Virus record (IMG/VR): IMGVR_UViG_2711768014_000012
Source: a virus
Taxonomy: Duplodnaviria > Heunggongvirae > Uroviricota > Caudoviricetes
Length of the DNA stretch: 36,201 nucleotides
Strand: one strand, 5' to 3'
Positions 17,501-23,500 of the stretch are shown piece by piece. A program made the position numbers. Positions within the stretch are counted from its first letter, which is position 1. Each line of letters starts with the position of its first letter.

Positions 17501-20500
17501 TAAGCAGTTTGTAAACGAGTTGCGAGAGTGTCTGGTAAGCAGCTGCCGGACCCTCCATCCAGAATGACGCAATACGTGAGCGTCGGGGATCACCATAACG
17601 ACTGCCATCCGCATTGATGGATTCACCATCCCGCAACCAGACCCCACGTCCGTTCAGCTCACGTTTGTGTTCAGGCATAATCCGTCCTGAACAGGAAGGA
17701 CACTGAATATAAGCCGCCTCACTTGCCAGCACGGGATCGGCAATATCACGGAAACCAGCAACCACATCGCCGCAGGGCTGAAAATACTCACCACAGTGTG
17801 GACAGGGCCAGTACCAGCGACGGCGATCGCCACGGTTATAGAGCGACAGTATCCCCGTGGTTGGTGGAGCCTCATGCGGTGAAGTCCGTCGCCATTTCAC
17901 ATCCTTCACATCCCTGCCGGGGGAACTCTCCACAAGCGTCATACCACTGGACATAAATGTTGTGGTACGTTTTGAGGCAAGAGAGAAAGCATCCCCCTCG
18001 CCATCAATATCTTCCGGAAAACGGTCATAATCCGTCAGCGCGACGCATTTATAATCTGATGAGGACATGATATTGACTGACGGCCAGCCGATTTTCAGGT
18101 AGTTACCAGCAAGGAATGTTCTGTCATAAACGTTGTTGTCATTTTTGTTCGGACTCAGGCGACTGACCACTTCCGGGCTGACGCGAAACGTTCTGGCGAG
18201 TCGTTTTTTGGAGTGTTCGCGGGCTTTTTCCTCCGTCATCTGAATGATCAGCATATCAGCAGGATCGCAAATCACGTTGTAAATCACCCAGCCGTCAATC
18301 AGGCCGATAGTCTTGCCGGTTCGTGCCGGGCCAACAAATATCACTGCGTCGTATTCACGCGAGGCCAGGCAGTTCATCGGCTCAATAACATACGGTGCCA
18401 CCAGCGGATCCCACGGGACTGAGTTCCCTGCCCCCATGGGCACCCGCATATACTGAGCAACGGCATCAGCAACCCGCATTCGTCTCGGTGCGCGAAGGAT
18501 ATAACCTGAATCGGTTCGTGCTGCCTTTGCGGTTTCCTGATTCAGCATTACTCCTCCTGCTGTAATTCCTCCTCATCATCCGCACCTGCTTCAGTCACCC
18601 GCAGGGCTATCTGATCGCGCAGATCATCAATAATGGACTGAACACGGCTCACAGCGGCAGGCTGCAGACCGCAGTCACGTTCCAGAATATCCGGTAATGT
18701 CTCCAGCACCTGCACGACCGCTTTTGCCCAGATGGCAAACTCCCGTCTGACATCACTGGCCGGAATGAGTTGTGCCGTTTCCTGTTCGAACTTAAGACGC
18801 TCACGTTCAGACTGATACCAGGCTTTGCGCTCATGCGCGTCCATTTCGCCTTCTGCAACCGGCGGTGGCAATGCCAGAAATGCCGACACAATATCAACCA
18901 CCCGATAAAGCTTGAGGTTGCTTTCATGCCCCCCTGCAACGGGTAGATTTTGCAGCCTTGCCGCAGCAGTCTGGCGATGTACACCTGACAGTGCCGCCAG
19001 TTGACTGATATTCAGCGTCAGATTTTTTAACTCTCGATCCATACCCGCTCCAGAATGTTTTAAACATGCATCTCGCGAACAACTTTAGGCAAACGGTGTT
19101 AGTGATGAACAAAAAACAATCAAAATCGACACCATAAAAACAAAACCACTGTAATATCAATCTATTACAGTGGTGGTGATGACGAATGAAATTTCAAAAA
19201 CTAGCCTTTTTCCGCGACGCTCCCGCCCCGTGGCAGGCCACTCCACCGGGAGGACCCGTCAGCCTGACAGACATGACGAACGTCTGATACAGCGCCTTGC
19301 ATGAATGGCATCGGGATAATCCAGAAAGGAATAGCATCGTGCCCACAAGAATCTGTGTGAGTATCCTGTTTCTTCCACCCCCGCACAGGACTGGCGAGCA
19401 TGAGGGACAAACCCGCGAACCATAAACGCGGTAAAAACCCGGTGTGCATCGTTTTTGATTATTCCCGCACACTCTCGCAGAAGGAGTTCCCCGTCGGGCT
19501 ACGGTCTCTGTTAATACGGGAATACGGCGACGATACAGCGCATGATGTGTCAGGCTTGAATACCTTTATCCGTTAAAAGGGATATCAGTTAAGTTATCCC
19601 GTGTAGGGTATAAGCCATTATCAAAGCCACTCTGTAGGGAGTGGCTTTTGTAATGGCAATAAAAAGCCCCGCGAATGCGAGGCTAAATCCAGGTATTTTT
19701 AATGACTGGCTCTTATTTCAACGCAGCCCCTTACCGCGCGCCAGATGCTCAACTTCAAGCATCAGCAATGAGATGTTTAATCTGGATTCACTCCAGAAGT
19801 GATCACCACCCTGTCTACAGAGCCAAATGTGAAGGATGATGAGTAAAATTATCGCTATCATCGAAGGCATTGCGTCCTGATATATTCCTGAAGCGTTCTC
19901 AGTGCTGTCTGGTCTCTGATGATTCCGTCCCGGATACCGAGAACGTTTCGTCCAGCAACTGGAGAGAGTTCGACGGTGGCATCATTGCCCATGCCGGAGG
20001 CGCTGGAGGTTTCGGCTGAGGATGGCACAGGGCATTTTCCTTTGACGAGCACCCGACCACCATTATCAAGCTTGCGCCGAAGAGCATCATTTTCAGCTTT
20101 CGCATCAGCCAACTCCTTCGTGTATTTAGCATCGAGTACATCAGCAGCACGCTGGCGTTGCTGCATGTCAGTAATGGTGGCGGTCGCCTGCTTCAGCTCA
20201 CTGACTTTTTTATCACGCTGTTCTTTGTAGGCGATGGCGTTATCACGGTAATGATTGACCGCCCACGACAGGCAGACGATGATGCAGATAACCAGAGCAT
20301 AAATAATCGCGGCGACTCTGCTCACTGATCTATCCCCCAACAGGCTAATGCGCTTTCCTGGTCACGACGAATAACCTGTCCATAGCAGTTATTTGAACGT
20401 ATGCGGCAATCGCGCCCACCATCTTTTATCCACCAGCGAATCGCCTCGCATGCACCTTTACGATCACCAGCATTCAGCCGCTTATAAAACGTCGACGGAA

Positions 20501-23500
20501 AACACTTACCGGGGCCAATGTTATAGGGACAAAATGACGCGATACCCGCTTTTTGTGGCTCGGTCAGTGGTACTTTAATATTGCGCTCCACCCATGCCAG
20601 CGCCTTATCACGCTCAATGGCGTTGACCTGGTCGCATTTTTCCTTCGACAGTTTCATACCGGGAAAAACGGGTTTTCCATCCACCATCGTGGCACCCCGA
20701 CAGATGGTCCAGATGCCGGACCCATCGCGGTATGCCGTTGTGTGGTTACCTTCTTTTTCATCCAGAAACTGGTCGAGAATATCAGGCGCGGGCGCACCGA
20801 CGGCAATCAGTGCCAGAACGGCAGCCGACAGGCCGTATCTGATTTTTGCGTTCATGGATATTTATCAGGATTTATCGGTTTCTGCCCACGGACAGGTTTA
20901 TCTGTTCCGGTCAGTGACTTAAGGTTGTGATTCCGGAGGAGTCTTCAGAGAACCAGTAATTCTTCCTGGTAGCTTTCCTTTGTAGGTTATNNNNNNNNNN
21001 NNNNNNNNNNNNNNNNNNNNNNNNNNNNNNNNNNNNNNNNNNNNNNNNNNNNNNNNNNNNNNNNNNNNNNNNNNNNNNNNNNNNNNNNNNNNNNNNNNNN
21101 NNNNNNNNNNNNNNNNNNNNNNNNNNNNNNNNNNNNNNNNNNNNNNNNNNNNNNNNNNNNNNNNNNNNNNNNNNNNNNNNNNNNNNNNNNNNNNNNNNNN
21201 NNNNNNNNNNNNNNNNNNNNNNNNNNNNNNNNNNNNNNNNNNNNNNNNNNNNNNNNNNNNNNNNNNNNNNNNNNNNNNNNNNNNNNNNNNNNNNNNNNNN
21301 NNNNNNNNNNNNNNNNNNNNNNNNNNNNNNNNNNNNNNNNNNNNNNNNNNNNNNNNNNNNNNNNNNNAAACCAGTACCCGGCACTACCTGCTGAGGTGCC
21401 ATAGGCGACACCCGTTGTTAACTTATCCATGGATTTCATAACCCCACCTCGCAGATGCGGGTGCTGTGTAATGGAAATAAAAAGGCCACCTGACGTGGCC
21501 ACCAGATTATTTCCCCACCAGCTCGTTTATCTCTTTCACTGTCTGATTAAACCGCTCTGACTCAAGCTCAACACCTAAGGCCCGACGCCCCAGCGCCATT
21601 GCTGCTTTTATTGTGGAACCGGATCCCATAAAAAAATCAGCAACCAGATCACCTGGTCGACTACTGGCATTGATTATTTGCCTGAGCATATCCGCCGGTT
21701 TCTCACACGGATGTTTCCCCGGGTAGAACTGAACGGGTTTATGCATCCAGACATCGGTATAAGGCACGGAGACTGATACGGAGAAATAGCGCCGGAGAGA
21801 TTTAAACTCATCCAGCAATTCAGAATATTTACGATTCAGTGAATCATAAGATGCCACCAGCTGGTGGTGTGGTTGTTCCAGTTGTTGTTCCTGAAACTTC
21901 TCTGCCGCTATACGGGAAAACAGTGCCTGTAACTTCCGATAGTCAGCCTCATTCGGCAACTGCCACTGACTGGCACCAAACCAGTGGGAAACCATATTTT
22001 TCTTACCTGTGGCTTCGGCAATTTGTTTTGCCGTTATACCCAGTTCGGCACGAGCATCCCTGAAATACGATATCAGCGGTGCCATTATGTGCTGTTTGAG
22101 TTCCCTTTCTTTTGCCGCATAGCCGTCACTTTTGCCGCGATATGGCCCCTGGTAATGTTCAGCAAACAGAACGCGCTCTGTGGCAGGAAAATATGCGCGC
22201 AGACTTTCTTTATTACACCCATTCCAACGTCCGGACGGCTTCGCCCAGATGATATGGTTAAGCACGTTGAAACGTTCACGCATCATGATCTCAATATCAG
22301 ATGCCAGGCGATGCCCACAGAACAGGTAAAGGCTTCCGGCAGGTTTCAACACCCGCCAGAACTGGGCCAGACAGTGGTCCAGCCACTTAAGGTAATCTTC
22401 GTCCCCTTTCCACTGATTGTCCCAACCGTTGGGTTTCACCTTGAAGTAAGGCGGATCGGTAACAATCAGGTCAATGGAATCATCAGGCAGGGACTGAATA
22501 AAATGCAGGCAATCAGCGTTGATTAAATCAACACTGTTTATTTTTACAGTATTTTTCATGGATCAGTAAGCGTAACTCTGGTAGGCTCACTCTGCTTTTG
22601 CGCTAAAGCAGTGGGCCGTGGTTCGCTTGTGACCAGTAAGCATGAGCGAATGGCTGGCAGGTGCTACCAACACCCACCAGCCGCCCATTTTCACAGCAGG
22701 AAACCGCCATTACTGGCAGCGTCTGAATTTATTCCCGTACCCGCCGTTATCCTTCGCCAGACCCGCCAGAACTAACTGAGTCAGTATTAACTGGCACCGG
22801 GCTTCGCTTACTCCGGTAGTTCTCGTCATCATGCGTGGCGTTACCCACTTGTCAGCAGGTAAGAAATGAAGGACTGCGGCGGCGGTTTCTGTCATATCTT
22901 GCTGTTTTAGCATGTCTTTTTCCCTTCTGGTTAACATGACATACCAATAACTCTTGTCTAAAAAGCCAGCAAGATAAAAAGTCAGTATTCACGACCACCA
23001 GCGTGTTTACTGTACTGCACCAAGTTTACGGGTACAAAAAACCCGCTCAGTGGCGGGTTGCTATCACAGCTATATATTTACTTATTATGCCGTTACTAAC
23101 ATTTATCTTCGACATATAATCGAAAACAAGGTTTGCTTAAAACTCTGCTTTCATTTTATCCGGGAATTTTTTATTTGCAGCATAATAACTACCAAGTACA
23201 TAAGCGTTCATTTGCTGCTCTACATCAACCCGACATGCCGCACTAGAACAAGCTCCACTGATAAGCCCAAAAGAACTCCCTTTAGCAGAGAGATCAGCTT
23301 TGATTTCCTCTACAGTGTTTTTCCCCATAGCAACTACACACCCTGTCACAATATATCTAGCTTTCACATCATCCATGCTAAGGATAGTAGTTTTCGCAAT
23401 TTTGCTGTATCCATCATTTTTATAAACATCCATGGCAAACGCACGGCAATCTGTATAATACGGACTTGCTTTAACTTGCGAATACTCAGGTAATTTCATA

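Follow-up and report, generated by a model that had tools for sequence, protein, structure and literature searches.

Probable identity of the assembly gap inside the lysis cassette of an Escherichia coli-type lambdoid prophage

What lies between the holin and endolysin genes of a phage lysis cassette when the assembly offers only a run of N's at that point? The question is raised by the IMG/VR virus record IMGVR_UViG_2711768014_000012 (Duplodnaviria; Heunggongvirae; Uroviricota; Caudoviricetes), a stretch of 36,201 nucleotides (nt) that was analysed at its full length and is called the window here. A first-pass annotation, made from the sequence alone, had described a phage-21-type lysis cassette at 19858-21439, composed of a dual-start pinholin, a signal-arrest-release (SAR) endolysin and an embedded Rz/Rz1 pair, and had noted unresolved sequence between holin and endolysin. 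The locus is very probably an ordinary late-gene lysis module of an E. coli-type lambdoid prophage that happens to contain an assembly gap. The N-run most likely represents a scaffold gap hiding the last 47 codons of the holin gene and the first 93 codons of ydfR (DUF1327).

All elements of the cassette were recovered where they had first been placed. Every feature is carried by the minus strand, as read from the window sequence and its open reading frames (ORFs), and the order along that strand is Q, followed at some distance by a DNA methyltransferase gene, holin, ydfR, endolysin, Rz/Rz1 and a 50-residue ORF, after which come DUF1441 and terminase genes. The holin, endolysin, Rz and Rz1 all have significant Pfam matches, far beyond chance (PF04971, PF00959, PF03245 and PF06085, respectively), and the PHROG families agree. 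The DNA flanking the gap is 99.9% identical to complete E. coli genomes in which the corresponding genes are annotated as essD, YdfR family protein, lysozyme and lysis protein. At the protein level, the products of the methyltransferase gene, the endolysin gene and the 50-residue ORF are identical to annotated relatives, and Rz alone differs, by the single substitution P99S relative to WP_001300226.1. Of 5,426 complete E. coli genomes, 5,320 contain a match to the cassette region, and the lysis stretch is present at a median of three places per genome. Judged by these comparisons, the cassette is already known, many E. coli genomes having annotated counterparts of its proteins in identical or near-identical form. 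The literature likewise describes the pinholin/SAR-endolysin cassette of lambdoid and Shiga toxin (Stx) phages of E. coli (PMC8136144, PMC9636201).

The assembly gap consists of 377 N's at 20991-21367, has no strand of its own, and its length is an estimate. Exact 40-nt matches to both of its edges were found in five independent loci (PhiR55_1, E. coli O177:H21, A14 and two further assemblies), and all five hold the same 427 nt between those edges with 0-2 differences. In these relatives the 427 nt are made up of the remaining 144 nt of the holin gene (47 codons and the stop), a 4-nt spacer, and the first 279 nt (93 codons) of ydfR. The hidden sequence of the window would most likely read ...LQLLDKVTPSQW...AARGE*, then TTCA, and then ATGACTCAAAAC... 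as the beginning of YdfR. Two points tell against this reconstruction of the locus. The second transmembrane domain (TMD2) of the holin and most of ydfR fall outside the readable part of the window, their presence being deduced from relatives, and at 377 nt the N-run falls 50 nt short of the expected 427 nt.

The length of the N-run can be judged against the other gaps of the same assembly. The window contains six N-runs, and the reference lengths come from a near-identical prophage of E. coli A14, whose genome is complete. Comparison of each N-run with its homologous length in A14 gives 129 vs 30, 325 vs 367, 165 vs 21, 286 vs 373, 231 vs 297 and, for the gap in the lysis cassette, 377 vs 427 nt. 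All six lengths disagree with the A14 prophage, over a range of -144 to +87 nt; the lengths of the N-runs are hence scaffold estimates, which makes the nominal figure of 377 uninformative. This bears directly on one alternative, in which the N-run is an exact-length mask over a true 377 nt and 50 nt present in all relatives have been deleted from the window, which would frameshift ydfR or remove its start. The nominal length is the one point in favour of such a deletion, yet all six N-runs depart from the homologous length, two of these (129 vs 30 and 165 vs 21) by exceeding anything homologous, which is how scaffold gap estimates behave. A deletion of this kind is extremely unlikely. An exact-length mask over a novel element was also considered and rejected, since N-run lengths are unreliable and the 427 nt are constant in five loci. 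The unresolved stretch noted between holin and endolysin is accordingly a scaffold gap and not a biological feature, with 427 nt at that position in all edge-matching loci.

A second alternative concerns the content of the gap rather than its length. The N-run might conceal a disruption, whether an insertion sequence, a deletion or some other insert, that leaves the cassette defective or differently organised. The content of the gap is unreadable, the 50 nt by which the N-run falls short are not a multiple of 3, and mosaic lysis cassettes do occur among prophages with an identical terminase. Nevertheless, the two edges continue the holin and ydfR exactly, the same 427 nt are found in 5/5 loci that match both edges, and the flanks agree with those of intact relatives at 99.9% identity; the 50-nt discrepancy is itself uninformative because the other five N-runs are off by -144 to +87 nt. 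A hidden disruption is very unlikely, and a scaffold gap spanning the holin-ydfR junction remains the preferred reading. The assembly likely broke at this point because the segment is repeated among co-resident lambdoid prophages. The other five N-runs (782-910, 1313-1637, 2561-2725, 5152-5437 and 5781-6011) lie among the tail genes, in the region of J, tail assembly, C40 peptidase and minor tail L genes. Their lengths disagree with A14, and the ORFs listed across them are therefore artefacts.

The first-pass annotation had allowed for a further small gene in the gap, provided that the gap length was real. That proviso fails, but the gene exists: it is the known ydfR, whose last 23 codons are visible downstream of the gap. 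This 3' end occupies 20919-20990 on the minus strand, encodes ITYKGKLPGRITGSLKTPPESQP and closes with a TAA stop. The 23 visible residues match the C-terminal end of WP_001545374.1, annotated as a YdfR family protein, at every position and correspond to the most conserved block of the family alignment. The window itself therefore supplies part of the proof that ydfR is present, since the 3' end of the gene is readable there. The full-length protein of the loci that match both gap edges has 116 residues and matches PF07041 with an E-value of 1.4e-42. In every locus examined, including A14, BP-4795, PhiR12_5 and Stx2 phage 86, ydfR starts 4 nt after the holin stop, and this close spacing suggests translational coupling of the two genes. 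Family members share residues 1 to about 112 and have a highly variable C-terminus, the total length being 114-196 residues in the alignment and 268 residues in phage 86; two database members show an internal duplication. The YdfR of the window is of the short C-terminal type that ends in ...KTPPESQP.

On the other side of the gap, the first 24 of the 71 holin codons are readable at 21368-21439 on the minus strand (PF04971, E-value 4.6e-07). These 24 residues score 30.2 bits against the Pfam family 'Bacteriophage P21 holin S', whose cut-off is 26, and they are identical to the N-terminus of WP_000839596.1, annotated as 'phage lysis protein EssD'. The complete 71-residue holin of the loci matching both gap edges covers 63/64 positions of the same profile (E-value 2e-35). 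The gene reads ATG AAA TCC ATG GAT AAG from 21439 and is preceded by a GAGGTG Shine-Dalgarno sequence. The N-terminus is therefore Met1-Lys2-Ser3-Met4 (MKSM), with Met1 encoded by the ATG at 21439-21437 and Met4 by the ATG at 21430-21428, which bears out the earlier proposal of a holin of the S21 family with a two-Met dual start. By analogy with S21, the two starts would give a 71-residue antiholin form carrying an extra Lys and a 68-residue holin form, the antiholin of such pairs being the longer product with an additional positive charge (PMC9636201). In the relatives, holin residues 37-53 (AAIGVLGSLVFGLLTYL) are hydrophobic, whereas the 17-residue first transmembrane domain (TMD1) is weakly so. 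TMD2 falls within the N-run of the window, where a holin with two such domains is inferred from these relatives. Pinholins of the S21 type form heptameric channels that are small, about 2 nm, and depolarise the membrane without releasing a cytoplasmic endolysin (PMC9636201). The first-pass annotation was also right that the holin frame could not be followed across the N-run, an apparent ORF that continues in this frame through the N's to 20987 being an artefact of translating N.

Upstream of the holin, a consensus scan and RNA folding point to an intrinsic-terminator-like hairpin at 21484-21500 on the minus strand (GGCCACGTCAGGTGGCC, then TTTTTATTT). It stands 45 nt upstream of the holin, between the stop codon of the DNA methyltransferase gene and holin Met1, and is presumably read through by Q-modified polymerase. 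RNA folding also places the Shine-Dalgarno sequence of the holin (GAGGUG) within a small hairpin at 21440-21470 on the minus strand. The predicted structure ahead of the holin does not exceed shuffled sequence in stability (z -0.99), and no RNA structure governing start choice is therefore claimed.

The endolysin gene lies beyond ydfR, at 20322-20855 on the minus strand. It encodes a muramidase of 177 residues that resembles T4 lysozyme and belongs to glycoside hydrolase family 24 (GH24; PF00959, E-value 1.4e-24), and it is 100% identical to WP_000992100.1. The catalytic motif, E35-x8-D44-x5-T50, aligns with that of PDB entries 3hde/3hdf in the same numbering (E-value 4e-16). These entries, deposited as 'Lysozyme', are taken here to be R of phage 21. 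The N-terminus of the protein is MNAKIRYGLSAAVLALIAVGAPAP. Following Lys4 and Arg6, a hydrophobic segment of about residues 7-24 (YGLSAAVLALIAVGAPAP) is composed to 47-53% of Gly/Ala/Ser/Thr, which agrees with the hydrophobic, Gly/Ala-rich export segment that had been noticed at first. Residues 1-30 contain no Cys, and the body of the protein contains eight. Overall identity to the 165-residue R21-type lysozyme is about 34%. The endolysin is predicted to be a SAR endolysin.

Several observations speak against that assignment. A literature search yielded no experimental demonstration of SAR behaviour for the 177-residue subtype. The hydrophobic core extends over about 14-15 residues before it meets GAPAP, and so is shorter than the core of R21; its insertion score over 17 residues is +2.7 vs +0.15 for R21 on a rough Hessa-type scale. 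Against the reading of the cassette as a whole, no clear Shine-Dalgarno sequence precedes the endolysin ATG. Because of the short core and the worse insertion score, a cleavable signal peptide stays a minor rival. Under this alternative the 177-residue endolysin would not be of the SAR type at all but would be exported with a cleavable Sec signal peptide, and some other mechanism would hold back its activity until membrane depolarisation by the holin. The short core (about 14-15 residues, GLSAAVLALIAVGA) and the helix-breaking GAPAP resemble the h- and c-regions of such a peptide, a possible A-V-G|A cleavage site is present, and the rough insertion score is less favourable than that of R21. 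At both Ala-X-Ala-like positions, however, Pro follows (A21|P22 and A23|P24), and Pro at +1 disfavours signal peptidase I. The Gly/Ala/Ser/Thr content of the segment is that of SAR domains, and the catalytic motif is in register with 3hde, with identical numbering. The endolysin families of Stx phages, which may include the 177-residue protein, are described as predicted SAR endolysins with an R21-like N-terminal domain, and the cassettes of these phages combine a predicted SAR endolysin with a pinholin (PMC8136144). The gene is also paired with a holin of the S21 family, through whose small channels an enzyme of the cytoplasm could not escape (PMC9636201). A cleavable signal peptide is distinctly unlikely, and the SAR prediction is retained. 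Of the pinholin/SAR-endolysin pairing first proposed, the part that stands is an exported GH24 lysozyme beside an S21-family holin; the SAR behaviour of the 177-residue subtype is a prediction.

The spanin genes complete the cassette. Rz, the inner-membrane spanin (i-spanin), has 155 residues and is encoded at 19858-20325 on the minus strand (PF03245, E-value 7.6e-29; PHROG 13, 'Rz-like spanin', E-value 4.6e-73). Its GTG start overlaps the endolysin stop (GTGA), and a TTG at 20340 offers an alternative start. The N-terminal transmembrane segment of Rz, residues 4-22 (19 residues), is strongly hydrophobic. The precursor of Rz1, the outer-membrane spanin (o-spanin), has 68 residues and is encoded at 19899-20105 on the same strand (PF06085, E-value 8.1e-21; PHROG 3198, E-value 1.2e-26), starting with the ATG at 20105 behind an AAGGAG. 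It carries a lipobox, VVGC, and a proline-rich mature part. As originally described, Rz1 (20105-19899) lies wholly inside Rz (20325-19858) with a frame offset of +1. It spans 0.47-0.91 of the length of Rz, which falls in the range typical of embedded spanins (PMC6139136). From this arrangement and these motifs, Rz/Rz1 can be classed as a putative two-component embedded spanin of the lambda type.

Overlapping the end of Rz by 13 nt is an ORF of 50 residues with an N-terminal hydrophobic segment (19718-19870, minus strand), which matches PHROG 11822, a family of unknown function, with an E-value of 8.6e-38. Its sequence is conserved and identical in relatives, where it is annotated as hypothetical, and it has no match in Pfam, NCBIfam or PADLOC. 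It could be a further membrane protein of the lysis cassette. The consensus scan places another intrinsic-terminator-like hairpin at 19665-19684 on the minus strand (AGCCTCGCATTCGCGGGGCT, then TTTTATT), 34 nt after this ORF, which would be the last one before the terminator.

How such a cassette would act can be outlined from the characterised phage 21 system, as reviewed (PMC9636201), from which the following steps are inferred. Late transcription antiterminated by Q would read through the hairpin upstream of the holin. The holin gene would then yield a Met1 product (71 residues, the antiholin with its extra Lys) together with a Met4 product (68 residues, the holin). Holin would build up in the inner membrane until, at a programmed time, its small channels collapse the proton-motive force. 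By then the 177-residue muramidase would already have been exported by Sec and be kept inactive by its weakly hydrophobic N-terminal segment; on depolarisation it would be freed into the periplasm, where it would degrade murein. The Rz/Rz1 spanin complex would disrupt the outer membrane last.

The closest counterparts of the cassette are found in the cryptic prophage Qin and its allies. In E. coli K-12, the Qin prophage has the order essQ - ydfR - rrrQ - rzpQ. Qin, BP-4795, Stx2-converting phage 86, PhiR55_1 and mEp460 share with the window the gene order, the 71-residue holin of the S21 family, a ydfR gene at 4 nt and the 177-residue lysozyme. Rz follows this lysozyme in mEp460, PhiR55_1 and E. 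coli prophages, as it does in the window, and the flanking DNA of PhiR55_1 and of the complete E. coli prophages is 97-99.9% identical to that of the window. The combination of holin, ydfR and 177-residue endolysin also occurs in PhiR12_5, and a gene of the ydfR family is known from H-19B besides the Qin prophage and BP-4795. Apart from the gap, there is no difference of substance between cassettes of the Qin/BP-4795 type and that of the window, although the C-terminus of YdfR varies among relatives.

Comparison with phage 21 itself gives a more divided picture of the earlier 'phage-21-type' label. The holin belongs to the same Pfam family and has the same MKSM dual start, the endolysin is likewise a GH24 enzyme with E35/D44/T50 in register and a hydrophobic segment at its N-terminus, and Rz/Rz1 are embedded in the same manner; the mechanism is presumed to be the same (PMC9636201). 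For the holin family, the dual start and the spanins the label holds. The endolysin, in contrast, sets the cassette apart from that of phage 21 proper: it shares no more than about 34% identity with the R21 type, has 177 vs 165 residues, a shorter core and eight Cys, and is of the type that follows ydfR. In addition, ydfR intervenes between holin and endolysin in the window, whereas the R21-type gene abuts the holin.

The likeness to lambda is of a more general kind and comprises a late operon downstream of Q, the logic of a dual-start holin, an Rz1 embedded in the +1 frame, and the same Pfam families. Lambda S105, however, is a class I holin with three TMDs and opens holes of micron scale, and the lambda endolysin R is a soluble transglycosylase of the cytoplasm (PMC9636201). 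The window would instead combine a class II holin of the S21 type with two putative TMDs and an endolysin that has an export segment. Lyz of phage P1 is a further GH24 lysozyme with an N-terminal export or anchor segment. It is a SAR endolysin regulated by disulfide caging. The endolysin of the window differs in having no N-terminal Cys and an Asp rather than a Cys at the catalytic position, and caging of the P1 type therefore does not apply.

Variation in this region can be followed among prophages whose large terminase subunit (TerL) is identical to that encoded at 16446-18548 of the window. These prophages carry either the holin and a 165-residue endolysin of the R21 type without ydfR, or the holin, ydfR and the 177-residue endolysin. 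Lysis-region variants with a Bor, porin or ORF11CD3 gene are also seen among them. The lysis region of these prophages is subject to modular exchange.

What ydfR contributes to the module that carries it is a separate matter. The YdfR family comprises 313 clusters and is almost confined to Escherichia and Shigella; among phage records, 101 contain a family member as against 438 that contain the holin. A hydrophobicity estimate gives YdfR no transmembrane segment, and the protein is taken to be cytoplasmic. The protein finds no match in NCBIfam or PADLOC, and the PHROG families to which it belongs are of unknown function. An AlphaFold2 model built on an alignment of 27 sequences has a mean predicted local distance difference test score of 62, with three strands and a helix at moderate confidence in residues 1-71 and values below 50 in residues 72-116. 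A Foldseek search with this model against the PDB returned no match with an E-value <0.1. Given the weak model and the empty search, the predicted structure permits no functional inference. In a 2026 study, YdfR of K-12 was reported to bind the catalytic half of RNase E, as judged by two-hybrid and pull-down assays; RNA was found to co-purify with the protein, and overexpression of YdfR changed the transcriptome little (PMC13232886). One possibility is that YdfR is a cytoplasmic, antiholin-like regulator, and another is that it is an RNase E-binding protector of the late transcript. That it is a genuine accessory factor in lysis timing or for late mRNA nonetheless seems unlikely.

The wider context of the cassette is that of a prophage whose genes run on the minus strand from Q through the DNA methyltransferase, the lysis genes, DUF1441/terminase, portal and a protease-capsid fusion to the tail genes. 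The Q antiterminator gene lies at 24636-23842 on the minus strand (PF03589). The DNA methyltransferase, an enzyme of 350 residues and of the N6/N4 type, is encoded at 21507-22559 on the same strand (PF01555; PADLOC type II methyltransferase model, E-value 3e-152). In the late operon it directly precedes the holin, no restriction partner was seen nearby, and it appears to be an orphan phage methylase. Rfam and tRNA scans returned nothing inside the lysis cassette. In the early region of the prophage, two Rfam matches exceed the gathering score: a C4 antisense RNA at 29619-29706 (minus strand, 82 bits) and, adjoining it, the Hfq-binding small RNA isrK at 29731-29807 (minus strand, 64 bits). At the edge of the window, an ORF with a Panacea/SocA-like antitoxin domain (35629-36201, minus strand; PF13274, E-value 1.8e-18) lies next to the prophage end, as it does in E. 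coli A14.

For annotation, the N-runs of the window are scaffold gaps of unreliable length and are not to be read as possible hidden features. The correct annotation of the locus is holin - ydfR - endolysin - Rz/Rz1, and Rz1 should be called explicitly because the annotations of relatives omit it. Beyond annotation, the locus has little significance of its own. The role of YdfR would be better addressed in Qin of K-12 or in BP-4795 than in the window, where the gene is mostly hidden.

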